The notes below the pieces were generated by a model that worked only from the letters and a program-made list of their open reading frames with translations, was not told where the DNA came from and searched no databases. The translations under genes and the position numbers were made by a program. A stretch of DNA of 64,000 nucleotides from Parcubacteria group bacterium Licking1014_17 (GTDB lineage Bacteria > Patescibacteriota > Minisyncoccia > 2-02-FULL-40-12 > IGHO2-01-FULL-4-A). Numbering within the stretch: the first letter of the stretch is position 1; each line of letters begins with the position of its first letter. Positions 34,462 through 52,946 of this stretch are shown here, in pieces. The DNA lies in assembly GCA_007376485.1 (NCBI GenBank), contig VMGJ01000006.1, positions 779 through 64,778 on the forward strand, in the 5' to 3' direction.

Positions 34462-37400
34462 ATGCCCGAAAATTTTAATTTCGCTGAAAACGAGAAAAAG
34501 ATACTCAAATTCTGGAAAGAACAGAAGATTTTTGAGAAATCAATGGAACAAAGGAAAAAGTCCAAGCCCTTTGTGTTTTTTGAAGGTCCGCCGACGGCAA
34601 ACGGCTTGCCCCACGTGGGGCACTTTATGTCCCGTTCATATAAAGATGTTTTCGGACGCTATAAAACAATGCGCGGGTATTATGTTTTGAGGCGAGCCGG
34701 CTGGGATACCCACGGGTTGCCGGTAGAAATTGAAGTAGAAAAAGGGCTTGGTCTCAAAAATAAAAAAGAGATTGAAGAATATGGGATTGCAAAGTTCAAC
34801 AAAAAAGCCAAAGAGAGCGTATGGAAATACAAATCCGAATGGGAAAGAACTTCGGAAAGGATGGGCATCTGGCTGGATTTTGATAACTACTACGCCACCT
34901 ACAAAAACTCTTATATAGAATCCGTCTGGTGGTTTCTTAAAGAGGCGTGGAATAAGAAACTTCTGTATAAGGGGCACAAGGTTTTGCCTTACTGCACACG
35001 CTGTGGGACATCGCTTTCAAGCCACGAGGTGGCGCAGGGCTACAAAGACGTTACCGAGCCGGCGGTTTATATAAAGTTCAAACTTGAAAAAAAGCAAAAA
35101 ATAAAAGGGTGGAATATTCCCAAAAACACTTGTTTTCTTGCTTGGACGACAACGCCATGGACTTTGCCGGGAAACGTTGCCCTGGCAGTGGGCGAAAAAT
35201 TCAAGTATCTCGTAGTTCGCATTGGCGATGAGTTTTTGATTTTAGCCGAGGGCAGGGAGTCGGTGCTAAAAGGGGAACGCGAGCTGGTGAAAAGTTTTGC
35301 CGGGAAGGACCTGGTCGGTCTTCGATACGAATCTTTATTTAAAATTAAATCCCTATCGACTAAAAAATCACACCGGATTTATCCGGCGGATTTCGTTACC
35401 ACCGAAAACGGCACCGGCATCGTGCACACGGCGGTGATGTACGGCGAGGACGATTACGAACTCGGCAAAAAAGTCGGCTTGCCTATGCACCATACCGTGG
35501 ATTTGCAGGGAAAATTCACCAAAGAAGTAAAGGGACTGGCTGGGCAGTATGTTAAAGATGCCGACAAGGATATTATAGAGACACTCAAAAAAGGGGGACT
35601 GTTATACGGTCAGGAGCCCTATACCCATTCCTATCCGCACTGCTGGCGGTGCAAACTGCCGTTGATTTATTACGCCAAGGATTCCTGGTTTATCCGGATG
35701 TCGTCTCTGCGTAAAGAATTGATTAAAAGAAACGAAACGGTAAACTGGCGACCCGAGCACATTAAAGAAGGGCGTTTCGGAGAGTTTTTGCACGAGGTTA
35801 AAGACTGGGCGTTAAGCCGAGAACGTTATTGGGGGACTCCGTTGCCGGTTTGGCAATGTCTCAAATGCAAAAATTATATTGCCGTAGGGTCAATCGAGGA
35901 TTTGGAAAAATACCGCCCAAGGAAGAAAAATGTTTATTACATTCTTCGCCACGGGCACAGCGAAAAAAACGCCAACGGCGGAAAAGAAGACATTATCAGC
36001 ACCCTGCTTGAATCGGACAAATACCATCTGACCCATAAGGGAGTGGAGCAGGTAAAAAAAGCTATTGAAGAACTGAAAAAGAAAAAGGTCAAGCTGGACG
36101 CGATTTATTGCTCGCCGTTTATCAGGGCGAAAGAGACGGCGGAAATAGTCGGCAATCACTTCGGGATAAAAGCAAAAACAGATAAAAGATTAAGCGAAAG
36201 ATTGCACGGACCGATGTGCGAAGGCAAACCGGAAAGGCTTTGCGAAATGCTGGTGCCGGCGACTCCGGAAAGCAAGCATGCGGGCGGCGAGTCAATCATG
36301 GAGGTCAAGGCAAGGATGTCCCGGTTTCTTAGGGAAATTGATGAAAAACACGAAGGTAAGACAATATTGGTCATCAGCCATGGCGATCCGCTGTGGGCAC
36401 TGACGGCTTTCACCGAGAATATTTCCGAAGATAAAATAATAAGCACGCGGCAGCGCCTGATGCCCGGGACCGGCGAATTGAAAAAAATCAACCTCAAAAA
36501 TTATCCCTACAACGTGGAGGGCGACCTTGATGTTCACCGACCGTTTATTGATGGAGTGGCGCTAAAGTGCCCAAAATGCGGCGGGAAATCCGTAAGAACG
36601 CCGGAAGTCTGTGACTGCTGGCTCGATTCCGGCTGTATGCCTTTCGCCCAGTGGCATTATCCTTTTGAGAATAAAAATTGGATAGACAAACCGAGTGGTT
36701 CGGACAAACAGTATCCGGCTGATTTTATTGTCGAAGCCATTGACCAAACCAGGGGCTGGTTCTACACATTGCTGGCCGTGGCTACTATTCTGGGCCGTCC
36801 CGCTCCGTATAAAAATGTCGGTGTTACCGGGTTCGCCATGGCGAGCGAGGGCAAGAAATTGTCCAAGTCGGAAGGAGCGGGCGAAGGATTCACTAAAATA
36901 ATAGAAGAATACAGCGCGGACGGCTTGCGATGGTATCTTTTTACCGTCAATGATTTAGGTGACAATAAGACGATTACCGCGCAGGATGTCCAGAAGAAGT
37001 TCAGGAATTTTCTTTTGATTTTATTCAATACTCTAAGATTTTTCAGCTTGTATCCCATAAAGGATAAGGCATTGCTGATAAACGAACCGGAACCCCAGGG
37101 GCTTTTGGATAAGTGGCTCCTTGCCCGCCTTAAAAAAACAGTGGCGGAGGCGACAAAACTTCTTGACAGTTATTATCCGACTCCGGCGACGCGGCTGATC
37201 GGGCAGTTCGTAGTTGAGGATTTGTCGAAATGGTGGCTCCGCCTGTCGCGCCAAAGATTCCAAAGGCCCGAGAGCGAACTTTCCCACGTATACGTGAGTT
37301 CATATTTGAGGTATATCCTTTTGGAAATCGCTAAGTTGCTTTCGCCGTTTATCCCTTATTTTACGGAACATATATACCGCGAATTGAATCACGGGCTTAA

Positions 37401-37974
37401 GGTTTCCGTGCCCAGCATACATTTGCTCGACTGGCCCAAGCTGGCTCCGTTTGAGGAAGCAGAAAAATTGGCGCTGGAAGAAATGGAAGATGTCAGGCAT
37501 TACGCGGCTTGTGGGCTGGCTCAGCGCCAGATAAAACAGATAAAAGTCAGACAACCGCTGGCATCTGCGAAGATTAAGCGGGAAAAGCGTTTCGACGCGG
37601 AATTGCAGGATATATTGAGAGCCGAGCTTAACGTGAAAGTAATCGAATACGATCCCGCCCAAGCCGGGGAAGCGGAGATAGACGATAACATCACGGCTGA
37701 ACTGCGCCAGGAGGGCTATGCCCGCGAGCTTGTGCGCAATATCCAGGAAATGCGCAAGGACGCCAAATACCCGCTGGATTACAAAGTCGGGGCGTATTGG
37801 GAAACCGAGAACAAGGAGCTGGCGCTTGCCATCGAAAATCTGCGGGACTTGATTAAAAATGATTCCTTATTGTCCGAAATAAATCGCGGCAACGCCGGTG
37901 CGGGGCATTTTGACGTCGAAAAGAAATTCAATCTGGCGCCAGGCGTAGAAATTTGGCTGGGACTTAAAGCTTAA
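34462..37974 (+). CDS. ileS: Isoleucine--tRNA ligase carrying an inserted histidine-phosphatase-like domain
   Basis: 1170 aa. HVGH motif, CP1 editing domain (TTPWTLP), WALSRERYWG, KLSKS. About 200 aa at residues ~488-690 (nt ~35920..36530) show RHGHSEKN and VISHGDPLWAL motifs, between CLKC and CPKCGG. Confidence 0.9.
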   Translation: MPENFNFAENEKKILKFWKEQKIFEKSMEQRKKSKPFVFFEGPPTANGLPHVGHFMSRSYKDVFGRYKTMRGYYVLRRAGWDTHGLPVEIEVEKGLGLKNKKEIEEYGIAKFNKKAKESVWKYKSEWERTSERMGIWLDFDNYYATYKNSYIESVWWFLKEAWNKKLLYKGHKVLPYCTRCGTSLSSHEVAQGYKDVTEPAVYIKFKLEKKQKIKGWNIPKNTCFLAWTTTPWTLPGNVALAVGEKFKYLVVRIGDEFLILAEGRESVLKGERELVKSFAGKDLVGLRYESLFKIKSLSTKKSHRIYPADFVTTENGTGIVHTAVMYGEDDYELGKKVGLPMHHTVDLQGKFTKEVKGLAGQYVKDADKDIIETLKKGGLLYGQEPYTHSYPHCWRCKLPLIYYAKDSWFIRMSSLRKELIKRNETVNWRPEHIKEGRFGEFLHEVKDWALSRERYWGTPLPVWQCLKCKNYIAVGSIEDLEKYRPRKKNVYYILRHGHSEKNANGGKEDIISTLLESDKYHLTHKGVEQVKKAIEELKKKKVKLDAIYCSPFIRAKETAEIVGNHFGIKAKTDKRLSERLHGPMCEGKPERLCEMLVPATPESKHAGGESIMEVKARMSRFLREIDEKHEGKTILVISHGDPLWALTAFTENISEDKIISTRQRLMPGTGELKKINLKNYPYNVEGDLDVHRPFIDGVALKCPKCGGKSVRTPEVCDCWLDSGCMPFAQWHYPFENKNWIDKPSGSDKQYPADFIVEAIDQTRGWFYTLLAVATILGRPAPYKNVGVTGFAMASEGKKLSKSEGAGEGFTKIIEEYSADGLRWYLFTVNDLGDNKTITAQDVQKKFRNFLLILFNTLRFFSLYPIKDKALLINEPEPQGLLDKWLLARLKKTVAEATKLLDSYYPTPATRLIGQFVVEDLSKWWLRLSRQRFQRPESELSHVYVSSYLRYILLEIAKLLSPFIPYFTEHIYRELNHGLKVSVPSIHLLDWPKLAPFEEAEKLALEEMEDVRHYAACGLAQRQIKQIKVRQPLASAKIKREKRFDAELQDILRAELNVKVIEYDPAQAGEAEIDDNITAELRQEGYARELVRNIQEMRKDAKYPLDYKVGAYWETENKELALAIENLRDLIKNDSLLSEINRGNAGAGHFDVEKKFNLAPGVEIWLGLKA

Positions 37975-42833: not shown

Positions 42834-43334
42834 ATGAATGAATACGAAAAACCCGAACAAGAAGACGAGGGTTTTGTAAAAAATGAACTCGAGAAATTAA
42901 GAGCAATAAACGATCGTGAATGTGAGTCATTAGCGACGTTTTTGCAGTCTCATATTGATGAAATATATAGATTACTTATTGAAAGAAACAAAGGATCTGC
43001 GGATTTTGAAGGTTTATGCGAAGTTGCCGCGGAGGAACTCCATAAAAGATTAAAAGCCGCCGGTTATGACAGTAAGATGGTTGAAGGAGATCTGGTGGTA
43101 GGCGAGAAGGATTCTTTATCTCATATGATTAATATGGTCAAATTCCCAAACCACTGGGTATTGATTGATCTAACCATCAGGCAATTGCCTTGGTATAAAA
43201 ACAAGAGCTGGCTTCTTGAGGCGTTGCCTCCCGACAACGCAGAAATAAAGAAATTTCTGTATGACCGATATAACTGGTGGCTGGGTCCGAATCATGATTA
43301 TAAAAGGGAGCCATTTGTTAACTGCAAGTCTTGA
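42834..43334 (+). CDS. Small transglutaminase-like (Cys-His-Asp) protein
   Basis: 166 aa. GLCEVAAEELHKRLKAAGY ... HMINMVKFPNHWVLIDLT. Confidence 0.4.
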   Translation: MNEYEKPEQEDEGFVKNELEKLRAINDRECESLATFLQSHIDEIYRLLIERNKGSADFEGLCEVAAEELHKRLKAAGYDSKMVEGDLVVGEKDSLSHMINMVKFPNHWVLIDLTIRQLPWYKNKSWLLEALPPDNAEIKKFLYDRYNWWLGPNHDYKREPFVNCKS

Positions 43335-43443
43335 ATCTCTTGACGACAAAAAAGTCACCGTCCGCGGCCGGGACACAATGAAGCAGGAGAGGGTGGAAAT
43401 AAAAGAATTGGCAGTCTATTTTAGGAAAATACTTGATATATAA
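43333..43443 (+). pseudogene. Displaced duplicate of the glyQS 3' end
   Basis: The 70-nt core at 43333..43402 is about 90% identical to 41647..41716. It encodes ESLDDKKVTVRGRDTMKQERVEI versus the GlyRS C-terminus ESIDDKKVTVRDRDTMKQERMEI. Confidence 0.7.
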
Positions 43444-43621
43444 ACCGTTTTGATTTAATCTGGGAAAGGAAAGCTTTTGATATTCGGCAAATATTACAGT
43501 TCAATTTCGGCGAACATTAGTGCGTAGTAAAGAACGGCGCACGAACTCCGAAGATGACGATTAGATCGTTCGAAAATCGCGTTTCCGTTTGCACGGAGAC
43601 GCGATTATTGTTATCCAGCAA

Positions 43622-43662
43622 ACCGCATCCTCGCCGATTGGCGCGAAGATGCGGTTTTTTTG
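43622..43662 (+). terminator. Rho-independent terminator (accgcatc...gatgcggt plus T7)
   Basis: Hairpin followed by ttttttt, downstream of the plus-strand block. Confidence 0.5.
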
Positions 43663-43700
43663 TATTTAACTTAATTGGCATGTTTCGTGCTTTACAAAGA

Positions 43701-44348
43701 TCAGTTGCCAATTCCAACTTTACAAATTATCGAATCCACCAATTTTTCTTTTGACGACTGGGTTAGTTTTTTTCTCTTGAATAATTTCTCGATCATTAAG
43801 TGGATTAATTCGTGCGCGATAGTGTAATCGGAAAAAGTTATGTCGGATTTCACATCGGGGTTCGCGCGAACATATATTTGGTTGCCCCGCCCAAAGCTTC
43901 CTCCGCTACCGTAAAATGTAATGTAGCAAACATAGGACTCCACAGTTTTAACGTCGGGGATTTTAGTGATTTTTTGAAAAAATCCTCTTTCTGTTTTTTG
44001 CCACTTTTCGCGCAAGATATTCAAAACCGATTTGTATTTACTGAGCGAATAAATAGAATTAAATTCGCGTAAAAATAGAGCGCGATCGCCGTCATTAAGT
44101 AGGTTTATATAACCATAATTAACACTATTTCCCAAGGATTTACTTGTCAGTTTTTTTAATTTCGATTCCAATTGCTTGGAAAACTTCGGTAATATCAATT
44201 CTGACGACCACTTCTTTAGAAATGACATTTTGCAATAAGTCCATAATACCTCCTCGATTTCTTTCTCTTTTGAGATACGGAACTGAACCTTATTTTTTTT
44301 GATGAATTTAGGCAAACAGGAAACAAACCTTACTAAAGTTATTGACAT
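43701..44348 (-). CDS. HExxH putative zinc metallopeptidase (paralog 1 of 3)
   Basis: 215 aa. ITFYGSGGSFGRGNQIYVRANPD...TIAHELIHL. Paralogous to 46933..47469 and 49601..50479. Confidence 0.55.
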   Translation of the reverse strand: MSITLVRFVSCLPKFIKKNKVQFRISKEKEIEEVLWTYCKMSFLKKWSSELILPKFSKQLESKLKKLTSKSLGNSVNYGYINLLNDGDRALFLREFNSIYSLSKYKSVLNILREKWQKTERGFFQKITKIPDVKTVESYVCYITFYGSGGSFGRGNQIYVRANPDVKSDITFSDYTIAHELIHLMIEKLFKRKKLTQSSKEKLVDSIICKVGIGN

Positions 44349-44436
44349 TAGCAGGATTTAATATATTCTAATTTCAGATTAACTGTCCATTAACAATCTG
44401 TCAATTACCCGATTAGGGGACGCGGGGAGTTGTCAA

Positions 44437-44910
44437 ATGGATGAAAAAAACATACTTCGACTCAAGTTGCCATGGCTGTGGGGCACGGACCTGCTTTGTA
44501 CCGCAGGGTACGGACCTGATAGCGGAAGTCCTTATCATGATGATAAGCATAATGCCTTCTACGCGCTTGACTTTGACAAGCCGTGGAGGGGAAATATGAT
44601 GCCGGTTGTGCCGATACTGGCTGTGGAAAAGGGCAATATCGTAACAATTGAGACCAATCCCGAGCATCCTTTTGGATGCCACGTAGTTATTAACCACGGA
44701 GGGGGGTATAAAAGCCTATACGCTCATCTAATGGGAATGCCTGATATACCAGATTTGGTGCGGCAGGGTCAATTGTTGGGCTATATGGGCGAAACGGGAC
44801 ATGCCCAGGGGCCACATCTACACTTCCAACTTTTCTTTAGAAACTTGTGCAGAGAGAAAATCAAACGAGCAATGCCGGCCCGGGTCCACATTCTCGGAGT
44901 TGTTACGTAA
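44437..44910 (+). CDS. M23-family peptidase domain protein (no signal peptide)
   Basis: 157 aa. YHDDKHNAFYALDF (HxxxD) and GETGHAQGPHLHFQL (HxH). Confidence 0.65.
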   Translation: MDEKNILRLKLPWLWGTDLLCTAGYGPDSGSPYHDDKHNAFYALDFDKPWRGNMMPVVPILAVEKGNIVTIETNPEHPFGCHVVINHGGGYKSLYAHLMGMPDIPDLVRQGQLLGYMGETGHAQGPHLHFQLFFRNLCREKIKRAMPARVHILGVVT

Positions 44911-45000
44911 AAAGGTCGAATCTGAAAGGAGAACGCAAGAAGAAAAACGGGAAACCGATTTGAAGAATCTTATTGGGATATTATTTAAATAGGAGAAGAC

Positions 45001-45348
45001 ATGGATACTCTTGAGGAAAAAAAGAATCGATTATGCCAAATCGCTACAGAAGCATTGGAAGATGTGATTAGAGACGGCTTATTGAAAGAAGAAGATAGGG
45101 AAAGCGTAGTAAATGCGATAGGGCACGTTTTGGGAGCATATAACGACCTGAAACAGGAGAAGGATTTTAATAAGCTCTCAAATAGGCTCATTGACGAATT
45201 CGAAAAAGATAAAATAGTTGGGTTGATTTGTATCTTAGAACTTTCCGAGTTTAATAGCAAAGTTGAAATTGAGTTCTGTAAGACCCTGAAAAAACACCGT
45301 GATTTGATACGCAAGGCCATAGAAGCCGATAGCCGCGCTGACAAGTAG
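45001..45348 (+). CDS. Hypothetical helical protein
   Basis: 115-aa ORF, followed by terminator 45378..45399. Confidence 0.4.
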   Translation: MDTLEEKKNRLCQIATEALEDVIRDGLLKEEDRESVVNAIGHVLGAYNDLKQEKDFNKLSNRLIDEFEKDKIVGLICILELSEFNSKVEIEFCKTLKKHRDLIRKAIEADSRADK

Positions 45349-45377
45349 GGGATAGCCGTTTATTTGGGTCTTTCACC

Positions 45378-45399
45378 AGCCGGCTCTGCCGGCTTTTTG
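45378..45399 (+). terminator. Intrinsic terminator agccggc-tct-gccggc plus T-run (the same module as 46565..46587)
   Basis: Identical stem to the terminator after 46204..46530. Confidence 0.55.
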
Positions 45400-45566
45400 T
45401 TGGGGCAAGCTCGTCAGAAAACGCCAAATGTGTGTGCACATTACCCGAGATGTGGATCTCGAAGTAAATATTACCTGTGTTATATTTGAAGCGATAACTG
45501 ATTTGATTATTGTGAACAATCTTATATTGTTTCTAATCCGGAGTTATGTTAGTACTATAGATAATT

Positions 45567-46190
45567 ATGAGTAAAGAAGGTTTTTGGGGAAAATTTGAAG
45601 AAAAGTGTCGCCAGAAGACGGAGGAGTTGCGCAGTAAACGTCTGAAGATGAAGGAAGAAAGGGAAAAAAGATTTGCCGAAAGAGGAGAAAAGCCGGGTTT
45701 AATCGGGTCTTGGTTTGAAATGATGGACACGGCAATTAAATTAAATGATTTTGTGGAAAATAACAGAGGGGAGATAAATGATGCGTTTAGCAGAGCCAAG
45801 GAAACAATAAAAGCGCCGGGATCATTGGACCCCAGAGAGAGGGGAGGAAATTTTAAATTAGCCGCAAAGGGATTAGCTGTTGATTTAGTCGGAGTGGTGG
45901 GAAATTATGAAAGCAGAGTGAGGGAGCGGCAGTTTAAAGAGGAGAGTAGGATTTTGAATAAAATTATAGAAATAAAGGCCGAAAAAGAAAAAATAGAGCA
46001 ATTGGATAATTTGGGGGAGACTATCAAACAAAGACAGCAAGAGGTAGTTGATGATATCAGCAGTTCGGGAAGGTCGATCCCCGATCAAGATGTTACAGAT
46101 AAACTTAGCGAGAAAATCGCGGCAAAACTTGAAAATGCCGACGAAAAGACGAAGAGGGAATTGCTCAAGCTAATTGGATCTTTACCTTAA
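45567..46190 (+). CDS. Hypothetical coiled-coil protein
   Basis: 207 aa, Glu/Lys-rich. Confidence 0.45.
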   Translation: MSKEGFWGKFEEKCRQKTEELRSKRLKMKEEREKRFAERGEKPGLIGSWFEMMDTAIKLNDFVENNRGEINDAFSRAKETIKAPGSLDPRERGGNFKLAAKGLAVDLVGVVGNYESRVRERQFKEESRILNKIIEIKAEKEKIEQLDNLGETIKQRQQEVVDDISSSGRSIPDQDVTDKLSEKIAAKLENADEKTKRELLKLIGSLP

Positions 46191-46203
46191 CGAGGAGGAC
46201 ATT

Positions 46204-46530
46204 ATGAGCGAAGAAAATATTGAGGCAAAAGTTGGGGAACTGAAAGCAAGAATCATTGCCGCGGCAAAACGGCCCGAGCTTGAGCTCGGTGAAAAATATG
46301 GGCAGGAATTGGCCGATAGTATGGAGAAGATACTTAATCTTCTGGATGAACGCGGGCGGAAAGAGCCGACTGTTGATTGGCTTTTGGGTGAGTTTAGAAA
46401 AGAAGAAATAACGGGGCTTTGGCATGTTTCAAATATGACGCTATACATGAAAGCGTTTAAACCTCTTATCATTGGACAAATTCTTGAATGGCTTGAGGAA
46501 ATCAAGGAAGAGGAGAGGAAGAAGAAATAA
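46204..46530 (+). CDS. Hypothetical protein
   Basis: Track ORF 46174..46530. The likely start is the ATG at 46204, after GAGGAGG. Confidence 0.45.
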   Translation: MSEENIEAKVGELKARIIAAAKRPELELGEKYGQELADSMEKILNLLDERGRKEPTVDWLLGEFRKEEITGLWHVSNMTLYMKAFKPLIIGQILEWLEEIKEEERKKK

Positions 46531-46564
46531 GTTTTTTTACTTCACTTTTTGTTCTTCTTTTACC

Positions 46565-46587
46565 AGCCGGCAATGCCGGCTTTTTGT
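46565..46587 (+). terminator. Intrinsic terminator agccggc-aat-gccggc plus T-run
   Basis: Repeated terminator module. See 45378..45399. Confidence 0.55.
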
Positions 46588-46604
46588 TGGGGGGTTGCAT
46601 AGAA

Positions 46605-46667
46605 AGAGTGCTAAATGTGGTGGACGCATACAGGGACTTGACTAAACTCCTATTATTAATGTATTTT
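46605..46667 (+). promoter_or_regulatory. Conserved upstream box plus promoter TTGACT-N18-TATTTT for precursor A
   Basis: Box agagtgctaaatgtggtggacgcatacagg, 46605..46634. A box sequence almost identical to this one occurs at 51910..51941, immediately before the cassette copy at 51945. Confidence 0.45.
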
Positions 46668-46688
46668 TTGAGCAGGAGGTTAAACGCC

Positions 46689-46871
46689 ATGCCACAAGAA
46701 TTGTATGAATGGGTGTCTAACCTTGCCGGTGCCGGAATGTTAGCCGATAGCATACCGGCTGGCACTGGCCCAGCGCAAATGGGGCCGGGCAGTCATTGCG
46801 ACTGCGTTTGCGCGGAATGCGACAATGGCCGTGGGAGCGGCCAGTGCAACTGCGGCCCTAGGGATTGTTGA
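46689..46871 (+). CDS. Candidate RiPP precursor peptide A (60 aa; core HCDCVCAECDNGRGSGQCNCGPRDC)
   Basis: Internal ATG within track ORF 46584..46871, preceded by AGGAGG. Seven Cys in the C-terminal 25 residues. Upstream of the HExxH peptidase and radical-SAM/SPASM genes. Confidence 0.5.
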   Translation: MPQELYEWVSNLAGAGMLADSIPAGTGPAQMGPGSHCDCVCAECDNGRGSGQCNCGPRDC

Positions 46872-46884
46872 CTCCCGCAATTTC

Positions 46885-46918
46885 GTAGCTGCCGGTCTCT
46901 TGGGGGACCGGCAGCTAC
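46885..46918 (+). other. Perfect 13-bp stem hairpin (gtagctgccggtc / gaccggcagctac, 8-nt loop) with no U-tract
   Basis: Sits between the precursor A stop and the start of the HExxH gene (46933). Confidence 0.5.
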
Positions 46919-46932
46919 ACCCATTTCAATAA

Positions 46933-47469
46933 ATGAAAAATATTTCGGTAATAATATCATTTAAACCAATACTCAAGCATTTATTAGAGGTGGTGGTTAA
47001 AAGTCTTGAAGCCGGCAATTATAAAAAATGGGGGCTGAACCCGATTTTACCGCCTCGGCTAAGTGATAATGAAGATTACGGAGTGGCTGCTGAAAGATTT
47101 TGGAATGAATCGGGCTGGTCCGATAGAGTTCAACCTCTCGTGCCCAAAATCAATGACTGGTGGAATAAATTTGGCGCTAAATTTACCGAGTCGTTATCTG
47201 CCGATTTAAAAGTTATAGAACCGGAAAAATATTATATAATACTTACTCCTTTCGGTCCCGGCGGCAGTTATAACACGTCTCAGTCGGCGATTTATGTCAG
47301 AATCACTGATCCAAATGATAATCTGTGGTGGCAGAGAGTTATTGTGCATGAAATCGCGCATTTAGTTAGTGTTAAGCAAGAAAATAAAGACCATGCGCGA
47401 AATGAGGATAGAATAAATAAAATTGTGCGTGAAAAACTTGAAGCTATGGGTATGACTGAATTGTTATAG
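46933..47469 (+). CDS. HExxH putative zinc metallopeptidase (paralog 2)
   Basis: 178 aa. ILTPFGPGGSYNTSQSAIYVRITDP...VIVHEIAHL. Confidence 0.55.
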   Translation: MKNISVIISFKPILKHLLEVVVKSLEAGNYKKWGLNPILPPRLSDNEDYGVAAERFWNESGWSDRVQPLVPKINDWWNKFGAKFTESLSADLKVIEPEKYYIILTPFGPGGSYNTSQSAIYVRITDPNDNLWWQRVIVHEIAHLVSVKQENKDHARNEDRINKIVREKLEAMGMTELL

Positions 47470-47510
47470 CAAATTTTTGTCCTTTTTAAATTGAATATTG
47501 GAGGATTTCG

Positions 47511-48569
47511 ATGGAACAGTATATTTGCCGTCCTCGTGTGATGTGGCTGTCTATTGTTGATTACTGTAACAATAGGTGCCTATGGTGCTATGAACAGTGT
47601 AACGAAGTTCTAGGCCGAAGCATGAGCCTGGATTTGGTGAAAAGAATTTGTAACGCTATGCGATCCGTGGGGGTCAAAAAGTGCATAGTGATAGGCGGGG
47701 AACCCACCCTTCACCCGAATTTTTTTGAAGTGCTTTCAGAGATTAAGGAATGTGGATTCACGATTTCTCTTGTCACGAACGGGCGTCTTATCAGTAAACA
47801 CGAGATAGCCGAAAAATTGTCGCAAACCAGGCCTGATTTTCTGACCATTTCGATTCATGGGTGGTCGCCTGAATCCTATTGCAGGCTGACAAAATCAAAA
47901 AATGGTTTTTCTGAGGTAGCCGAAGGAATGACTCTCCTAAGAAAGCACGGCGTTAAATTTGAGGTGAATATCACCCTCAGTAAATTAACCGCTGGTTTAA
48001 CGGAAGAAATCCTTTCTTTTCTGGAAGCCAACAATATTAAGCACGCCGGATTTAATCTTGCGTCACCTTCGGTATCGGCCCAGAAAACCGTTGCTGAATT
48101 TGTCCCTACGATGCAGGAATTAGCGAGCCAAGCCGTATCCGTTTTCAAGGGCTGCTTGAGTCGGGGAATCAGGCCGTCATTCTTGCTGACCCTCCCTTTC
48201 TGCCTCTTTGGCGATGAGGAATTGTCAGAATTCTTCAAAGCCAGAGCTGTTATATCGGGATGTCAGCTACTATCGGGTTCTGGGATTGTTTTCCAAGCCG
48301 ACGGGTCTATATCCCTTTGCAACCATCTACTGGATTTCAAAATTGCCAATCCTCAACAGACAAGAGAATTGCTTGCTTCGGAAGGCAACTTTCTTGAATT
48401 CTGGAATGCGGAGAAATTGTGTGAAATAAGAAAACAAGCGAATTGTTTCAGGTCTCCTGTTTGCTCCAAGTGCAGTCAATGGGGCATTTGCGGTGCTGGT
48501 TGCATGGTAAGGTGGGCGCATCATAGCCTTTCCGAAGTAGAATTCAGAGAGGTAAATATTAACATCTAG
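47511..48569 (+). CDS. Radical SAM enzyme with C-terminal SPASM-type Cys cluster (RiPP maturase candidate 1)
   Basis: 352 aa. CNNRCLWC (Cx3Cx2C). C-terminal CNHL...CEIRKQANCFRSPVCSKCSQWGICGAGC. Confidence 0.8.
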   Translation: MEQYICRPRVMWLSIVDYCNNRCLWCYEQCNEVLGRSMSLDLVKRICNAMRSVGVKKCIVIGGEPTLHPNFFEVLSEIKECGFTISLVTNGRLISKHEIAEKLSQTRPDFLTISIHGWSPESYCRLTKSKNGFSEVAEGMTLLRKHGVKFEVNITLSKLTAGLTEEILSFLEANNIKHAGFNLASPSVSAQKTVAEFVPTMQELASQAVSVFKGCLSRGIRPSFLLTLPFCLFGDEELSEFFKARAVISGCQLLSGSGIVFQADGSISLCNHLLDFKIANPQQTRELLASEGNFLEFWNAEKLCEIRKQANCFRSPVCSKCSQWGICGAGCMVRWAHHSLSEVEFREVNINI

Positions 48570-48582
48570 GTCTACTCCGTAT

Positions 48583-48616
48583 GCAGATGGTGATTGTATG
48601 CCATCTGCTTTTATTT
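48583..48616 (+). terminator. Intrinsic terminator gcagatgg...ccatctgc plus ttttattt
   Basis: Directly after the radical SAM gene. Confidence 0.55.
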
Positions 48617-48625
48617 AAGAGGCTA

Positions 48626-48654
48626 TTGACAAATACTTTGGCTTGACTTATAAA
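48626..48654 (+). promoter_or_regulatory. Sigma70 consensus promoter cassette, copy 1 (TTGACA-N17-TATAAA)
   Basis: ctattgacaaatactttggcttgacttataaagga. Near-identical copies at 49339..49367 and 51945..51973. Confidence 0.6.
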
Positions 48655-48739
48655 GGAAGTATCAGTGTTGTCAGCTCTTTTGTGCTCTTCAACAATCGAA
48701 ACCGAGGCTAGGGTTTCTAGCCTGAAAGTGAGGTATGAA

Positions 48740-48865
48740 ATGAAAAAATTTCGTCGTGTCGCTCGCGGCAAGCCCTTTTTACCTATATCCGTAAACGAAT
48801 CTCAGTTTGAAAATTCACAGGCAAGAATGTTCTTGCCTGGTTTTTTTAAATTAGATTTTTACTAA
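48740..48865 (+). CDS. Small peptide, 41 aa (MKKFRRVARGKPFLPISVNESQFENSQARMFLPGFFKLDFY)
   Basis: Internal ATG of track ORF 48665..48865, after GTGAGGT. Driven by cassette copy 1. No Cys. Confidence 0.35.
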   Translation: MKKFRRVARGKPFLPISVNESQFENSQARMFLPGFFKLDFY

Positions 48866-48866
48866 T

Positions 48867-49244
48867 TTGGATGAACAAATTAAATTAACTCTTGAGTATA
48901 TTCAAAAATTGACTAAGGGTTGGTACAAATTCAGCAAAGCCACGGAGGCCTATAAAACATCTTTATTTGAATGTATTGCGCACAAGAAAACTGGTTGCAG
49001 CATGAAAGCAAGGTTTGCTCAACTGCTTTTGACTTTTCTTGGTTACGAAGTCGAAATAGTGAGAGGATACTATAAATCTCCTGAGAGATGGACTTTGCAT
49101 GCCTGGGTAAAGGTCAACGGCAAGGAGTACGACCCGACCAGGAAGAATTTTCAAATAACAAGAGACAAACACTCGCGAACAAATCCCGATCCTCACCTCA
49201 CTGATTGGGAACAGGTTTTCGAGAAAATGGAAGGGGAGAATTAA
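48867..49244 (+). CDS. Small transglutaminase-like Cys-His-Asp protein (putative cysteine peptidase)
   Basis: 125 aa. TGCSMKARFAQLLLTFLGYEVEIVRGYY...LHAWVKVNGKEYDPT. Confidence 0.5.
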   Translation: MDEQIKLTLEYIQKLTKGWYKFSKATEAYKTSLFECIAHKKTGCSMKARFAQLLLTFLGYEVEIVRGYYKSPERWTLHAWVKVNGKEYDPTRKNFQITRDKHSRTNPDPHLTDWEQVFEKMEGEN

Positions 49245-49338
49245 CCCCCAACTGAAACTCCATAGGCCGTCAGAATGTGGCATATACATACATTTTAACC
49301 CCCAAATGTCGCTAAGCCGTTGAACCATTACGTTACTC

Positions 49339-49367
49339 TTGACAAATACTTTAGCTTGACCTATAAA
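49339..49367 (+). promoter_or_regulatory. Sigma70 consensus promoter cassette, copy 2
   Basis: cttgacaaatactttagcttgacctataaaggagatagttgtt. Confidence 0.6.
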
Positions 49368-49410
49368 GGAGATAGTTGTTTTAAATCTGCGGAAAGGGGG
49401 TGAGGTAATA

Positions 49411-49548
49411 ATGCCCGAAGACCCGGGAACTCTTTCGCTTTTCATTGGTCCCGAGGACGACCAGGTGCCGTCCAAAATGAGTTGTGATTTTGATGTTGAC
49501 TGTTATGACTGCGACTATAACTGCGAGGAGTGCAACAACAGCGATTAA
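49411..49548 (+). CDS. Candidate RiPP precursor peptide B (45 aa; core SCDFDVDCYDCDYNCEECNNSD)
   Basis: Missing from the track because it is under 60 aa. Strong SD AAAGGGGGTGAGG 8 nt before the ATG. 5 Cys and 8 Asp/Glu in the last 21 residues. Followed by a hairpin (49569..49601). Confidence 0.55.
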   Translation: MPEDPGTLSLFIGPEDDQVPSKMSCDFDVDCYDCDYNCEECNNSD

Positions 49549-49600
49549 TAGCTCGTCAGTCGCCCGCTCAAGGCGACTCCGCAAGGAGCCGCCTTGAATT

Positions 49601-50479
49601 TTACCGAATTATTATAGATTTTCTATATTTTGAAAGTAGTTCTGTGTTACTAAAAATCTTGTTTCCGTGTTTTTTCCAAAGCGACATTTTTTCGGAAAGC
49701 TGCCCGTCTATTTTGAAGGCAGAACCTACAAGTTCTTCAATAAAATTTAAAAATGGCAATTTTTGTTCCAGCAAGTTCGCCAGTTGCTTCTCCACGTAGT
49801 CCTTGAAAAGCACAGGGCTATTGCCATTAGTTTTTATAAACAACTCTCTTATTTCCGGGTTACCCACTTCTCTAACGCTGAGGATTTCAGAAAGCCCTTG
49901 TTGATTAACAATAGCGGTAGCTACTAATTCTTTAAGTAAATAAACAGCATCTTCACTGATTATAATTCCTGTCCGTTTTTTAATTTCATCCAGATACCCC
50001 CAAAAAATTATGTGACTGATTTCGTGTATCGCCACATTAAGCAACCTTTTTTCAATGGTCTTCGCTGACTTTAATTCGCCGAGAATAGAATAAAAAAATA
50101 TTTTACCCCTGAACGGCGAAAACGGCAAAATGGTAAAAATTGCCTCATATTTGGCATCTTCCGGCCACTTATAATCCATAATTTTTGATAGTGCCGCAAA
50201 TGCATTGATGCCCCTTTCTTCGAGATGCCGCAAATTTGATTTCCTGATTTTTTCAATCGTATCGGCGTTATCTTTATAAAAATCGGACACATATCCGCTG
50301 ATTCTTTGCCGGAAATCAGTACCATTAGATAACTCGGCCAGCTTGGGATGGGCTTTAAAAATTGAAAACTTTGCCTGGACAAAGTAGGGGTGATTAACAA
50401 AACTCCAAAACAAGTTTGCATCTTCCCGCGGGTCTATTTTTATTGTTATTTTTGGGAGCTTAATTTGCTTTGTTACCAT
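49601..50479 (-). CDS. HExxH putative zinc metallopeptidase (paralog 3)
   Basis: 292 aa. ILPFSPFRGKIFFYSILGELKS...VAIHEISHI. Confidence 0.55.
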   Translation of the reverse strand: MVTKQIKLPKITIKIDPREDANLFWSFVNHPYFVQAKFSIFKAHPKLAELSNGTDFRQRISGYVSDFYKDNADTIEKIRKSNLRHLEERGINAFAALSKIMDYKWPEDAKYEAIFTILPFSPFRGKIFFYSILGELKSAKTIEKRLLNVAIHEISHIIFWGYLDEIKKRTGIIISEDAVYLLKELVATAIVNQQGLSEILSVREVGNPEIRELFIKTNGNSPVLFKDYVEKQLANLLEQKLPFLNFIEELVGSAFKIDGQLSEKMSLWKKHGNKIFSNTELLSKYRKSIIIR

Positions 50480-50548
50480 ACTTTGATTTTTTTTAGGATT
50501 TATTGTAGAATAACATAAGCTACTTTGAAAAGCAAAAGGAGAGAAACC

Positions 50549-51862
50549 ATGTATAGGAGACTGAAATCGCCATTAATTGTTCAGATTGAGTTGACCGAGG
50601 CATGTATTAATAAGTGCCAACATTGCTACAATCCCCGACGATTAGAAGGTAATCACAGGCAAAGTTTTCCGGAAGATAGAGCCAAACTCGCCGTGGACAT
50701 CTTGGCCAAGGAGGAAGTTTTCCATGTCGTTTTGACCGGAGGCGAGCCGTTGTTAAATCGCGGATGTCTTTTCCGGCTTGCCAAAGAAATTTCTGCGGCC
50801 GGGATGACTTTCGGACTTAACTCCACTCTCTTTGGGTTTTCTCAAAAAGACGCAATAAGTCTGAAAAAATTGGGCATTCTTAATATCCTAGCAACCCTAT
50901 TGGGATCAACCAAAGAAAAGCATGATGCTCTGACCATGAACTCTGAATCCTTTACAAAGACCATTGAAGGGTTGGGTATCGCCTTGGAGGCAGGCATACT
51001 AGTTGGTGTGAATATGGTTGTCACAAACTACAATATCGCAGACATAAGAGACACCGCCAAGCTGGTTAAGACATTGGGAATCCGGTCTTTCTATGCGACA
51101 AAAGCTGCTTGTCCAAGTGATCAAAGAGAATTCAAAGATGCGATACTGGGCAAGGATCATTTTAGAAATTATCTGGAAGAGCTAGACTTGATTGGCCGGG
51201 AGGAGGGGCTTAAATGCGGTTTTCTGGAAGCTTATCCGCTTTGCGGCATGAAGAACTTGGGGAAATACGCCTACTTTCTCGGCCGTCGCTGCCTAGCCGG
51301 TATAACAAGCATGACCATAGCCGCTGATGGCAATATCAGGCCGTGTTCGCACTCTGACATCACGTACGGCAATATTTTCGTTGATGGCGGCATAGGTAAG
51401 GCATGGAGCAAAATGAGTGAGTGGCCGGATGGTCAATTATTGCCTGCCGATTGCAAAAAATGTCCGTTGCTAAACCGCTGCGGAGGCGGTTGCAGGATGG
51501 ATGCTAAAATCGCCGGTGGGTCAATCGACGCCATGGATCCGTTCACTTCACTGCCGGATGTTGATTATGTATTCGAACAACTTAAATCCGCCATTAAAGA
51601 TGGAGAAAGGCCACCACTGAACTTGCCGGACAAGATTAAACTGTGTCGCAACGCGAGAATTCGTTCTGAACCATTTAGCGGTGCGGTTTTCCCCCGAGGA
51701 AAACTTGGTACACTTCTGAATTCGGAAGGTATGCGTGTGTTTATGCAATTAGGGAGGGAAGTGCGTGTAACCAAAGAGCTTGTGCAAAACGCTGATTCCA
51801 AAGAAAAAACCGAGGAGTTTCTAAAAAAGCTTCTGTCTAAATCTATCATTGAACCCGCATAG
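50549..51862 (+). CDS. Radical SAM enzyme with SPASM-type C-terminal Cys cluster (RiPP maturase candidate 2)
   Basis: Track ORF 50525..51862 starts on TTG. The likely ATG is at 50549, after AAAGGAGAG. CINKCQHC (Cx3Cx2C). C-terminal CSHSD...CKKCPLLNRCGGGCRMD. Confidence 0.8.
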   Translation: MYRRLKSPLIVQIELTEACINKCQHCYNPRRLEGNHRQSFPEDRAKLAVDILAKEEVFHVVLTGGEPLLNRGCLFRLAKEISAAGMTFGLNSTLFGFSQKDAISLKKLGILNILATLLGSTKEKHDALTMNSESFTKTIEGLGIALEAGILVGVNMVVTNYNIADIRDTAKLVKTLGIRSFYATKAACPSDQREFKDAILGKDHFRNYLEELDLIGREEGLKCGFLEAYPLCGMKNLGKYAYFLGRRCLAGITSMTIAADGNIRPCSHSDITYGNIFVDGGIGKAWSKMSEWPDGQLLPADCKKCPLLNRCGGGCRMDAKIAGGSIDAMDPFTSLPDVDYVFEQLKSAIKDGERPPLNLPDKIKLCRNARIRSEPFSGAVFPRGKLGTLLNSEGMRVFMQLGREVRVTKELVQNADSKEKTEEFLKKLLSKSIIEPA

Positions 51863-51881
51863 CTAAAAAGTTTGGAGCTAC

Positions 51882-51907
51882 AGCCACCAGAGAATGGTGG
51901 CTTTTTG
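51882..51907 (+). terminator. Intrinsic terminator agccacca-gagaa-tggtggct plus T-run
   Basis: Directly after radical SAM gene 2. Confidence 0.55.
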
Positions 51908-51909
51908 TT

Positions 51910-51973
51910 AGAGTGCCAAATGTGGTGGGGACGCATACAGGCTATTGACAAATACTTTGGCTTGACCTATAAA
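51910..51973 (+). promoter_or_regulatory. Conserved upstream box plus sigma70 consensus promoter cassette, copy 3
   Basis: Box agagtgccaaatgtggtggggacgcatacagg, 51910..51941. TTGACA 51945..51950. TATAAA 51968..51973. Confidence 0.6.
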
Positions 51974-52058
51974 GGAGATAGTTGTTCTTTAGGTGCTTTT
52001 TTGGCTCTTTAACTCAAAGGTTTCATTTTCCGGCTATGCCGGCGAAAGGAGGAAGGAA

Positions 52059-52946
52059 ATGAAGTTTTTACCGATTTTTGGGACAAAGGCGGCTTTCGTC
52101 GCCCTCATGGTGGTGCTTTGTCTTTTTACCATCACTGGCTGCGACAGAAACAGCCCCACCAAGCCCGAGCCGTCACCGACCCCAACCCCAGAACCGCAAT
52201 TTACCCCCACCCCTACCCCCGTATTTACTCCGACTCCAAGACCGACTTCAACTCCAACCGCTACTCCGACCCCGACTCCAACACCCACGCCAACTCTCGT
52301 GAATGACGCAGAATGTGTTAGGGTAAAAGCTAATTCCCCTGTTGAGGTGGGGGCGGTTTTTACCGCCACGGTGAAGATGAGAAACACGGGGACGAAGCCC
52401 TGGTCCGATCCGGATGCGGATGGTAATGACCAAGTCCACAAATTAGTAGGATTAAACCCCCTTACCTGGGGGACAAACGAAGTTAGTCTTCCATCCTCAC
52501 CAATAAACCCCGGGCAGACTGTAGTTTTTCACGTTACTGCCACAGCCCCAACTACAGCAGGGACATACGGCTTCAGCTGGCAAATGATCGAGGGCCAGGA
52601 ATGGTTTGGCGAGCTATGTTCGAAGGACATAATCGTCAATAATCCTGTCCTGATGTCAATTATTGTGACGTACCCTGTGTCTGGGTCTGTGTGGCACCAT
52701 GACGACGAAGTTGTAGTCATGTGGAATAGCACAGGCTATCCTGCCGATTTTGTTTACAGAATTTACGCGAAGTCGGGCAATTGGGAAAAAGACCTGGGCA
52801 TGAGTCAATACGGGCTACTGCTCTTCTACGTTCCGGCCGACTGGCCGCCTGGGGATTGCACGGTGTTTGTGACTGACCCCGCTTTCCCGCCCAAGACAAA
52901 TAACGGCGTGAGCGGGGACGAGAGCGAGGTTTTCCAGGTAGAGTGA
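52059..52946 (+). CDS. Secreted protein / lipoprotein candidate with long Pro/Thr linker
   Basis: ATG at 52059 after AAGGAGGAAGG. Signal peptide ending ITGC. (TP)n linker. Driven by cassette copy 3. Confidence 0.55.

Follow-up and report, generated by a model that had tools for sequence, protein, structure and literature searches.

A 64,000-nucleotide stretch of DNA (hereafter the window) from the metagenome-assembled genome Licking1014_17 ('Parcubacteria group bacterium Licking1014_17') was analyzed around a small gene on the + strand, at positions 46689-46871, that encodes a Cys-rich peptide of 60 residues, here called peptide A. The gene is real and conserved, and peptide A is probably the precursor of a RiPP (a peptide made by ribosomal synthesis and modified after translation) that would be modified by the adjacent radical S-adenosylmethionine (SAM)/SPASM enzyme. 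Cross-linking of the product by thioethers, in the manner of sactipeptides or ranthipeptides, is proposed by analogy and more tentatively, at a little below even probability. A RiPP pathway is suggested because the peptide has a leader and a core, a SPASM enzyme and a putative peptidase are encoded beside it, the signals around the gene are of the precursor type, and such peptides and enzymes co-occur throughout the enzyme clade.

Peptide A combines a leader motif with a strongly constrained core

The gene comprises 60 codons, from the ATG at 46689 to the TGA at 46869-46871. Its full translation is MPQELYEWVSNLAGAGMLADSIPAGTGPAQMGPGSHCDCVCAECDNGRGSGQCNCGPRDC, exactly as it was quoted in the original prediction, which was made from the DNA sequence without database searches. 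The Cys-dense carboxyl end described there was borne out, with Cys at residues 37, 39, 41, 44, 53, 55 and 60, or 7 within the last 24 residues. When the window was divided into stop-to-stop segments in all six frames, peptide A was the only segment of 25 residues or more to have 7 Cys within 30 residues. The gene and the hairpin that follows it (46670-46939) form a sharp spike in GC content, 59% as compared to approximately 40% in the flanks. The NCBI annotation has the 60-residue form, as hypothetical protein CEN90_657.

A word-indexed protein search with peptide A returned only peptide A itself, and Pfam and NCBIfam (the latter at E <= 0.01) gave no family for it. An exhaustive phmmer search of 1.84 billion representative sequences found one true homologue, P0025; two further matches were rejected as spurious, the proteins being long repeat proteins in which the leader was matched by composition. 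The other orthologues were found by reading the DNA around relatives of the neighboring HExxH and radical SAM genes, where small open reading frames (ORFs) were uncalled or unannotated. A scan of metagenomes did not enlarge the set of close orthologues; it yielded only further copies of the L007 and L011 types and distant members of the clade. The close family as used here consists of seven distinct sequences, from the window and six other lineages. The homologue in locus L003 is MKALRTWLNGLGNASHLAPKVPSGASALLSGPHCDCVCTECDDGHGSGQCNCGPRDC, that in L015 and P0025/L017 is ...AWLDGLGG..VLAH.VPVGSSAV.INTDCDCICT(Q/E)CDDGHGSGQCDCAPRDC, that in L011-14 is ...VWLRRLSGSGNFSPLVPVGTN...QCDCVCTQCDCVCGQCDCAGRDC, that in L020, from another Parcubacteria genome, is ...RDCVCSQCDNGHGGGQCDCEGDC..., and that in L007-10/L018, from a Saccharibacteria genome, is MEALAEWMEGLNGKHILANQIPRGLGEQYTQCDCEGDCDGDCVD.

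Peptide A lies directly upstream of the HExxH protein and the radical SAM/SPASM enzyme, as predicted; the three genes are all on the + strand and are separated by gaps of 61 and 41 nt. The suggestion that the same peptide be sought beside HExxH and radical SAM genes in related genomes gave a positive answer (L003, L015, L011-14, L020 and L007/L018). In every orthologue locus except L017, a 1.6-kb contig that ends just past the peptide gene, the peptide gene was found beside genes for this radical SAM enzyme and for a protein of this HExxH family. The order is peptide, HExxH, radical SAM in the window, L003 and L015, HExxH, radical SAM, peptide in L011, and radical SAM, peptide, HExxH in L020. 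Because the linkage of the three genes outlasts this shuffling of gene order, it argues for a functional unit.

The layout of a leader followed by a Cys-rich core, also part of the original prediction, is reflected in a conserved leader motif and in different selection on the two parts. The leader (residues 1-35; 46689-46793, + strand) carries L5, W8, L12, G14, L18-A19 and (I/V)22-P23-x-G25, and the alignment retains W-x-x-x-L-x-G...(I/V)-P-x-G across the relatives. When compared with shuffled sequences, the similarity of the leaders gave z = 9.7 for L007, 9.8 for L011 and 4.7 for L020. The core (residues 36-60, with the stop codon 46794-46871, + strand) is HCDCVCAECDNGRGSGQCNCGPRDC. It contains 7 Cys, 4 Asp, 2 Asn and 1 Glu, so that Cys donors and Asp, Asn and Glu acceptors are available, and 22/25 of its residues are identical to those of L003 even though the enzymes are just 54-55% identical.

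Nonsynonymous (pN) and synonymous (pS) differences were counted by the method of Nei and Gojobori in the four closest orthologues, for leader and core separately. The core, in pairs with the window or L003, gave pN of 0.05-0.13, pS of 0.81-1.19 and pN/pS of 0.05-0.15. The corresponding values for the leader, in all pairs, were 0.14-0.53, 0.31-0.87 and 0.47-0.87. Purifying selection on the core is strong, and its synonymous sites are close to saturation. The low pN/pS of the core and its 22/25 identity to L003 show that the + frame is translated and that the C-terminal 25 residues are strongly constrained.

Expression signals and the extent of the gene

The unit upstream of peptide A ends in an intrinsic terminator (46565-46590, + strand) with a stem AGCCGGC..GCCGGCT at 46565-46581 and a T-run to about 46590. 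A 37-nt terminator, TCTTTYACCAGCCGGC..GCCGGCTTTTTGTTGGGG, occurs in two copies, 92% identical, at 45369-45405 and 46556-46592; the copies flank a unit of two genes (45567-46530), for whose products no function could be recognized. The terminator is followed by a promoter-like site (46638-46667, + strand; TTGACT, 18 nt, TATTTT), which is a match to the consensus only. A block of about 40 nt upstream of peptide A (approximately 46603-46645) matches 51915-51952, upstream of the gene at 51993. The predicted GGAGG site ahead of the ATG was found to be part of an AGGAGG ribosome-binding site (RBS) at 46674-46679 (+ strand), 9 nt 5' of the start codon, and sites of this type lie 6-10 nt 5' of the ATG in 7/7 genes of the close family.

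The original prediction had remarked that the ORF lister joins the gene into an ORF of 95 residues that starts at TTG 46584. The frame is open from that codon, and the true product might be this longer, ordinary small protein, or the ORF might be a chance, non-coding one; the probability that either is the case is negligible. The 35 extra codons overlap the terminator, including its T-run, and contain the promoter-like site and the RBS. Conservation of these codons as protein had been named as the sign of an ordinary protein. Such conservation is absent in L003, where a stop lies two codons 5' of the ATG, and in L015, where the residues upstream of the Met are unrelated. The start codons of the orthologues correspond to the Met of peptide A, the NCBI gene call is the 60-residue form, and a chance ORF is excluded by the pattern of synonymous substitution. 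With a terminator and a promoter within the extra codons and a stop upstream in L003, the 95-residue ORF was ruled out and the short gene, as predicted, was retained.

Directly after the stop codon of peptide A there is a stem-loop (46885-46918, + strand) with a stem of 15 bp and no T-run; folding of a 60-nt stretch at this hairpin gave -30.7 kcal/mol (z = -5.8). A strong stem-loop is present directly 3' of the stop in 7/7 close-family genes, its position but not its sequence being kept. In L003, as in the window, the hairpin is without a T-run, and in both the HExxH gene begins 14-20 nt beyond it. A similar layout, in which the hairpin is a partial terminator or stabiliser, follows many RiPP structural genes. 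The hairpin at 46885-46918 is probably a partial terminator or an mRNA-stabilising element of this kind. A terminator-like hairpin (48583-48616, + strand) closes the unit formed by peptide A, the HExxH protein and the radical SAM enzyme. Rfam gave no family match in 43000-52500.

The adjacent enzyme is a SPASM protein of no named family

The putative maturase of peptide A is a radical SAM/SPASM enzyme of 352 residues (47511-48569, + strand), recognized from motifs, profiles and a structural model. Pfam Radical_SAM matches it with E = 4.7e-26. The radical SAM motif is C19-x3-C23-x2-C26 (CxxxCxxC) and the SPASM signature consists of C251...G265-x4-C270 and C318-x2-C321-x5-C327-x3-C331. All of these residues are invariant in alignment A5, and the homologues P0010 and P0016 have precomputed PF13186 SPASM matches. 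There is no conserved Cys after C331, so that the canonical two-cluster motif appears to lack its eighth ligand here, and one auxiliary cluster may have an open or non-Cys site.

The enzyme has sixteen relatives with identities of 24-50%. Its 25 best NCBIfam matches all fall far below their cut-offs; they include archaeal MoaA (87 bits, cut-off 325), StsB (75 bits, cut-off 625), the W-cofactor maturase (73 bits, cut-off 380), anSME (54 bits, cut-off 349) and PapB (NF047865; 44.9 bits, cut-off 340). Eight more distant relatives are likewise below every curated cut-off. The protein is a SPASM enzyme of the peptide-modifying type that belongs to no named family.

An AlphaFold model of the enzyme had a mean confidence (pLDDT) of 91.9. 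Its best full-length structural neighbors in the PDB were SuiB and anSME, with template-modeling (TM) scores of about 0.70 and 18-19% identity, followed by CteB with TM 0.62 and 16% identity. A sequence-profile search of the PDB gave SuiB, SkfB and anSME, all peptide-modifying SPASM enzymes, as the best matches, while the profile alignment with CteB was limited to the N-terminal 113 residues. No match to PqqD or to the RiPP recognition element (RRE) was found in Pfam or NCBIfam. The model opens directly with the barrel, and with 352 residues and the barrel at the N-terminus there is no room for an RRE.

These neighbors bear on the alternative that peptide A is a RiPP precursor on which the enzyme performs some chemistry other than thioether formation, which we consider unlikely. 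The candidates, which share this low probability jointly, are anSME-like conversion of Cys to formylglycine, C-C or C-O cross-linking, epimerisation, and conversion of the core to a small redox or metal cofactor like pyrroloquinoline quinone (PQQ) or mycofactocin. The closest full-length structures are indeed those of anSME and SuiB and not that of a thioether synthase, and the models of thioether synthases all scored below cut-off. Moreover, anSME resembles the enzyme in lacking an RRE and in having about 350-370 residues, and the extreme conservation of the core together with the absence of a transporter is what is seen with peptide-derived cofactors. However, the likeness to anSME and SuiB, at 18-19% identity, is at the superfamily level only, and the anSME substrate motif C-x-P/A-x-R is not in the core, where the nearest string is C-G-P-R. 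Furthermore, what is constant across the clade is richness in Cys and Asp, which fits the donor/acceptor pairs of radical thioether peptides (PMC9413430).

Related enzymes are accompanied by Asp- and Cys-rich peptides

The enzyme alignment was scanned against one genome per GTDB species, and 368 relatives were confirmed. The best 80 of the 368 came from Patescibacteria, the candidate phyla radiation (CPR), from DPANN archaea (Woesearchaeota, Pacearchaeota, Nanoarchaeota, Aenigmatarchaeota and Diapherotrites), and from Clostridia, Tenericutes, gut Proteobacteria and others. A precursor-type ORF was defined as one on the same strand, 25-110 residues long, with at least 4 Cys in the last 30 residues and at most 350 nt from the enzyme gene. 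Such an ORF was present in 50/69 non-redundant loci, a count that leaves out L003, L015 and the window, in which the HExxH gene separates peptide and enzyme; among the other small ORFs of these loci the proportion was 2.6%. Examples are MVETLLDKVSGIQLRGESI...ASDCCYGADCGDCDCGGYCIDSECD from Woesearchaeota, MSLKSVLHLYKGTEIDAPVAYG...GDCCDVDGDCSNCD from Clostridia and MEAVQLLLVRKGVEEQAPVQ...CDCCDCADCSCDCVN from Uhrbacteria. The cores of 46 distinct clade peptides consist of 29% Cys, 23% Asp and 11% Gly. Asp is the residue before Cys in 188/337 cases (56%), and C-x-C is the most frequent Cys spacing. Ten representative clade peptides had no relevant NCBIfam match at E <= 1.

The C-x-C spacing, which is typical of metallothioneins, could be read as pointing to an unmodified peptide rich in Cys and Asp that binds metal, either metallothionein-like or as a carrier of Fe-S clusters or zinc, with the link to the radical SAM gene explained, for example, by cluster delivery or regulation. 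The strong conservation of the core and the absence of an export gene from the window would also fit. This explanation is nevertheless highly improbable. A Cys-free N-terminus of 35 residues with a docking-type motif is not expected in a metallothionein, no metal-binding family model in Pfam or NCBIfam matches the peptide, and a dedicated putative peptidase co-occurs with it. Moreover, the link to the peptide-modifying SPASM class recurs in the 50/69 loci, across very distant phyla.

Several further arrangements were observed in the clade. There are two tandem precursor genes in L111 (303-726), and in other members, in Clostridia (L040, 4003-4278; L046, 2554-2946), the core is made up of a module of approximately 15 residues, NCYDCHCSSDDC..., that occurs three times. 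In L007 (4429-8576) and L011 (1963-6708) a gene for a HisKA_7TM sensor kinase directly adjoins the HExxH, radical SAM and peptide genes, and is accompanied by an extra gene, which encodes a response regulator in L007 and a FeeM-like acyl-amino-acid synthase in L011. The sensor kinases hint at signalling or auto-induction. The - strand of L011 also encodes, at 214-1745, another radical SAM enzyme of 448 residues, unrelated to the first, with a 61-residue peptide of its own that ends ...NRDCGDNDGCDGDCGGDGSEGC; this second unit is about 3 kb from the A-type unit and mirrors the two-unit layout of the window.

The HExxH protein is a probable zincin

The protein encoded between peptide A and the enzyme (46933-47469, + strand) has 178 residues and is, from family, synteny and model, a zincin-like putative leader peptidase. 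It has five relatives that are 41-55% identical. Invariant in the family are a G-x-G-G stretch (PFGPGGSY in most), R123, H139-E140-x-x-H143 and E158, the Glu being 15 residues past the HExxH motif. The model (pLDDT 88.7) has strands at 99-105, 111-114 and 119-123, followed by a helix at 130-149 with the HExxH motif and a helix at 154-171 with the Glu.

A Foldseek search of the PDB with this model gave nothing significant (best E = 0.16). The weak local matches, over approximately 80 residues, included the M1 gluzincins leukotriene A4 (LTA4) hydrolase and a cold aminopeptidase, a snake-venom metalloproteinase, ADAM-8 and archaeal minigluzincins. Pfam and NCBIfam have no family for these proteins, and a sequence-profile search of the PDB gave nothing interpretable. 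When the whole family was scanned against Pfam, all matches were subthreshold and most were to zincin peptidase families: M85 in 4 members (best E = 8.5e-4), MA_2 in 3 members (best E = 8.3e-4), and also M35, DUF6782, DUF5700, M64, M91, SprT-like and DUF3267. The families matched by more than one member were all zincin peptidases; single members had scattered weak, unrelated matches. Identity with the alpha-ketoglutarate (alpha-KG)-dependent HExxH hydroxylases was considered and rejected, the 178-residue protein having no match to TIGR04267 in NCBIfam at E <= 0.01. Because the weak matches point to zincins and none to the TIGR04267 hydroxylases, the protein is probably a divergent zincin that acts as leader peptidase.

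The family is also found with other partners. In L001 (3941-9099) an orthologue with 53% identity is followed by a Cys-free peptide of 54 residues rich in Gly, Asp and Tyr, …QYGDDGYNDGYGDGGYGDQSYGEGPAG, and then by a SPASM enzyme that is only distantly related (23% identity) and by one protein each of DUF553 and DUF6624. Upstream in L001 there are two more HExxH proteins and a 47-residue ORF with CDN and C..CD motifs. Because L001 pairs an HExxH orthologue with a Cys-free peptide, the family, to judge by its gene context, serves more than one type of peptide. In L002 and L004-6 the family has no radical SAM neighbor on the recovered contigs. A third HExxH paralogue in the window (43701-44348, - strand; 215 residues) is 29% identical to the 178-residue protein over 76 residues; it is divergently oriented with respect to an M23 peptidase gene (44437-44910, + strand), and no Cys-rich small ORF was seen adjoining it.

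Comparison with known peptide-modifying systems

The ranthipeptides (freyrasin PapA/PapB, the NxxC peptides and thermocellin CteA/CteB) likewise have a short precursor, in which a leader precedes a Cys-rich core with Asp or Asn, and a SPASM radical SAM maturase encoded beside it. However, the enzyme of the A unit is outside the PapB, CteB and NxxcB families (44.9 of 340 bits for PapB; 16% identity to CteB) and has no RRE, the motif of the clade is D-C / C-x-C and not C-x3-D, and the zincin-like HExxH partner and the CPR and DPANN hosts are further differences.

The SCIFF peptides (six cysteines in forty-five residues) are very short, highly conserved, Cys-rich peptides of unknown function encoded beside a SPASM enzyme, and peptide A resembles them in that its core is also more conserved than is usual for RiPPs. 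The leader motif, the richness in Asp and the taxonomic range are different. No SCIFF precursor model matched peptide A (NCBIfam, E <= 0.01) or the ten related peptides (E <= 1), and no SCIFF maturase model was among the 25 best NCBIfam matches of the enzyme. The sactipeptide systems (AlbA, SkfB, ThnB and StsB) also combine a Cys-rich core with a radical SAM maturase that has a SPASM (or Twitch) domain, and StsB and SkfB were among the better sequence matches, to the N-terminal half of the 352-residue enzyme. In contrast, their synthases have an N-terminal RRE and match from about residue 100, whereas the motif here starts at residue 19 and the scores are far below cut-off.

The enzyme anSME is of the same size and domain composition (radical SAM core, SPASM, no RRE), is joint best structural neighbor (TM 0.70) and has as its target a Cys within an unstructured peptide. 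It differs in that the identity is 19% and the score 54 of 349 bits, there is no sulfatase substrate here, and the partner is a dedicated small peptide. In the pair QhpC/QhpD, the gamma subunit of quinohemoprotein amine dehydrogenase and its SPASM enzyme, multiple intramolecular Cys-to-Asp/Glu thioethers are formed by the SPASM enzyme on a small polypeptide; in contrast, peptide A is free-standing and has a leader, and there are no amine dehydrogenase genes here. The alpha-KG HExxH hydroxylases (IPR026337/TIGR04267; ChlH, BpmH and PflC) are also HExxH proteins encoded in RiPP clusters next to a radical SAM enzyme. Their reaction is the beta-hydroxylation of Asp, Asn, His or Gln (PMC12636437), residues of which Asp and Asn are abundant in the core of peptide A. 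However, the weak enzyme-family matches of the 178-residue protein are to hydrolytic zincins and none are to hydroxylases.

Proposed maturation and function

In the proposed pathway, the peptide A gene would be driven by its own promoter, and the hairpin would probably raise the level of the precursor mRNA relative to that of the enzyme. Residues 1-35 would serve as leader, with W-x-x-x-L-x-G...(I/V)-P-x-G docking the peptide onto the modifying machinery, and residues 36-60 as core. The co-transcribed 352-residue enzyme would abstract hydrogen atoms from residues of the core, and the Cys sulfurs would most probably be joined to carbons of nearby residues, with Asp and Asn as the likeliest acceptors. 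The 178-residue zincin-like protein would most probably then cut off the leader, and a compact peptide of the sacti- or ranthipeptide type with multiple thioethers would result. Multiple intramolecular thioethers are tentatively favored because the Cys are paired with Asp and Asn, as donors and acceptors are in radical thioether peptides. PapB, for example, forms Cys-Asp and Cys-Glu thioethers and accepts Cys-Xn-Asp with n = 0-6 (PMC9413430).

Several observations weigh against this interpretation. The modification chemistry is drawn entirely from analogy, and in sequence and model anSME and SuiB are at least as close to the enzyme as the known thioether synthases are. Among the nearest structures are ones with other chemistries, SuiB forming a Lys-Trp C-C bond and anSME producing formylglycine from Cys, and the enzyme reaches no curated family-level cut-off in NCBIfam or Pfam. 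The RRE, which binds the leader in most characterised sacti- and ranthipeptide synthases, is not in the enzyme. The HExxH protein has no significant match in structure or sequence to any characterised peptidase. The close family of peptide A is small, with its seven distinct sequences, and a core far more conserved than the leader is unusual for antimicrobial RiPPs. Finally, no gene for a transporter or for immunity is evident in the window.

The product could serve in signalling, in antagonism or to bind metal. Speculatively, a specific and conserved role, for example as a signal or in the handling of metal, is favored over that of a fast-evolving toxin in an arms race because the core is near-invariant, the window has no transporter or immunity gene, and relatives have sensor kinases beside them. 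A more far-reaching proposal, to which we assign a rather low probability, is that a large, undescribed class of RiPPs, the 'Asp-Cys repeat' peptides, is processed by an RRE-independent SPASM enzyme that introduces a new type or topology of cross-link, for example within D-C or C-x-C units. The class would have spread horizontally among ultra-small episymbionts, both CPR bacteria and DPANN archaea, and gut anaerobes, and its product would be a signal or metal handler and not an antibiotic. Such a role would fit the near-invariance of the core and, in two lineages, the adjacent HisKA_7TM kinases.

Peptide B and the neighboring genes

A second unit lies downstream of the first. Peptide B (49411-49548, + strand) has 45 residues and 5 Cys, its sequence being MPEDPGTLSLFIGPEDDQVPSKMSCDFDVDCYDCDYNCEECNNSD, and its gene has its own RBS and promoter cassette; Pfam and NCBIfam have no family for it. 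The HExxH protein of this unit (49601-50479, - strand; 292 residues) cannot be aligned with that of the A unit outside the motif, and the radical SAM/SPASM enzyme (50525-51862, + strand; 445 residues) is 20% identical to that of the A unit. The best relative of the B-unit enzyme among the fetched loci is in the Woesearchaeota locus L088 (E = 1e-61), where the enzyme gene is followed by one for a peptide ending YACDAECDNCHCATY.

Peptides A and B had been proposed to be paralogous. The common string C-x-E-C-(D/N)-N on which this was based is present, and BLASTP aligned the two peptides over 11 residues with E = 0.019. However, in comparison with composition-matched shuffles the leaders gave z = -0.09 and the cores z = 2.1 (p ~0.04), and with radical SAM partners 20% identical and HExxH partners that cannot be aligned, paralogy is not demonstrable. 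The MP start shared by the two peptides did not hold as a sign of the family either, the orthologues of A beginning with MK, MR or ME. As the L088 peptide beside the B-type enzyme ends YACDAECDNCHCATY, strings like ECDN appear from these sequences to recur in this compositional class. The description that fits peptides A and B best is that of two systems of one broad kind, with cores rich in Cys and Asp beside SPASM enzymes, and not that of demonstrated paralogues.

Between the two units, a transglutaminase-like protein with the Cys-protease fold (48867-49244, + strand; 125 residues) matches PF01841 with 23.1 bits at a cut-off of 23. It also has a weak, subthreshold match to the lasso-peptide B2 protease model, and may be a leader protease for either unit. 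A promoter-like cassette, TTGACAAATACTTTRGCTTGAC(C/T)TATAAAGGAG, is found in near-identical form at 48623-48667, 49336-49380 and 51942-51986, ahead of the transglutaminase-like gene, peptide B and a gene at 51993 for a 317-residue Ig-like protein, respectively; there are three exact or near-exact copies and none would be expected by chance. The shared cassette and the block of about 40 nt suggest that the whole neighborhood may be co-regulated. Elsewhere in the window, the isoleucyl-tRNA synthetase (34462-37974, + strand; 1170 residues) has a histidine-phosphatase insert (His_Phos_1, residues 493-659, E = 4.5e-29) that interrupts the class I catalytic domain.

Significance

The bacteria of the CPR and the archaea of DPANN are host-dependent, and their genomes are very small. 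To our knowledge, no RiPP from either group has been characterised. The action of SPASM radical SAM enzymes on Cys-rich peptides is itself a known theme, represented by sactipeptides, ranthipeptides and SCIFF. What appears to be new in the peptide A family is the RRE-less enzyme clade, the cores with Asp-Cys repeats, the leader motif, the zincin-like partner and a range centred on CPR and DPANN. In the openly accessible literature no description of the family was found, only generic mentions of ranthipeptides of the antiSMASH type. Genome-mining surveys count 'ranthipeptide' clusters in many phyla, DPANN included, and the radical SAM RiPPs of archaea have so far been predictions only (PMC12144867). 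A compendium of about 15,000 proteins was built by RRE-based mining (PMC10288494), an approach that would miss the peptide A family because its enzyme is without an RRE.

The locus of peptide A is a compact system of three genes, the precursor, the SPASM enzyme and the putative peptidase, that can be tested directly. The family has a clear signature and relatives in hundreds of genomes, and one solved member would show how a leader is recognized without an RRE and what chemistry takes place on dense Asp-Cys motifs.

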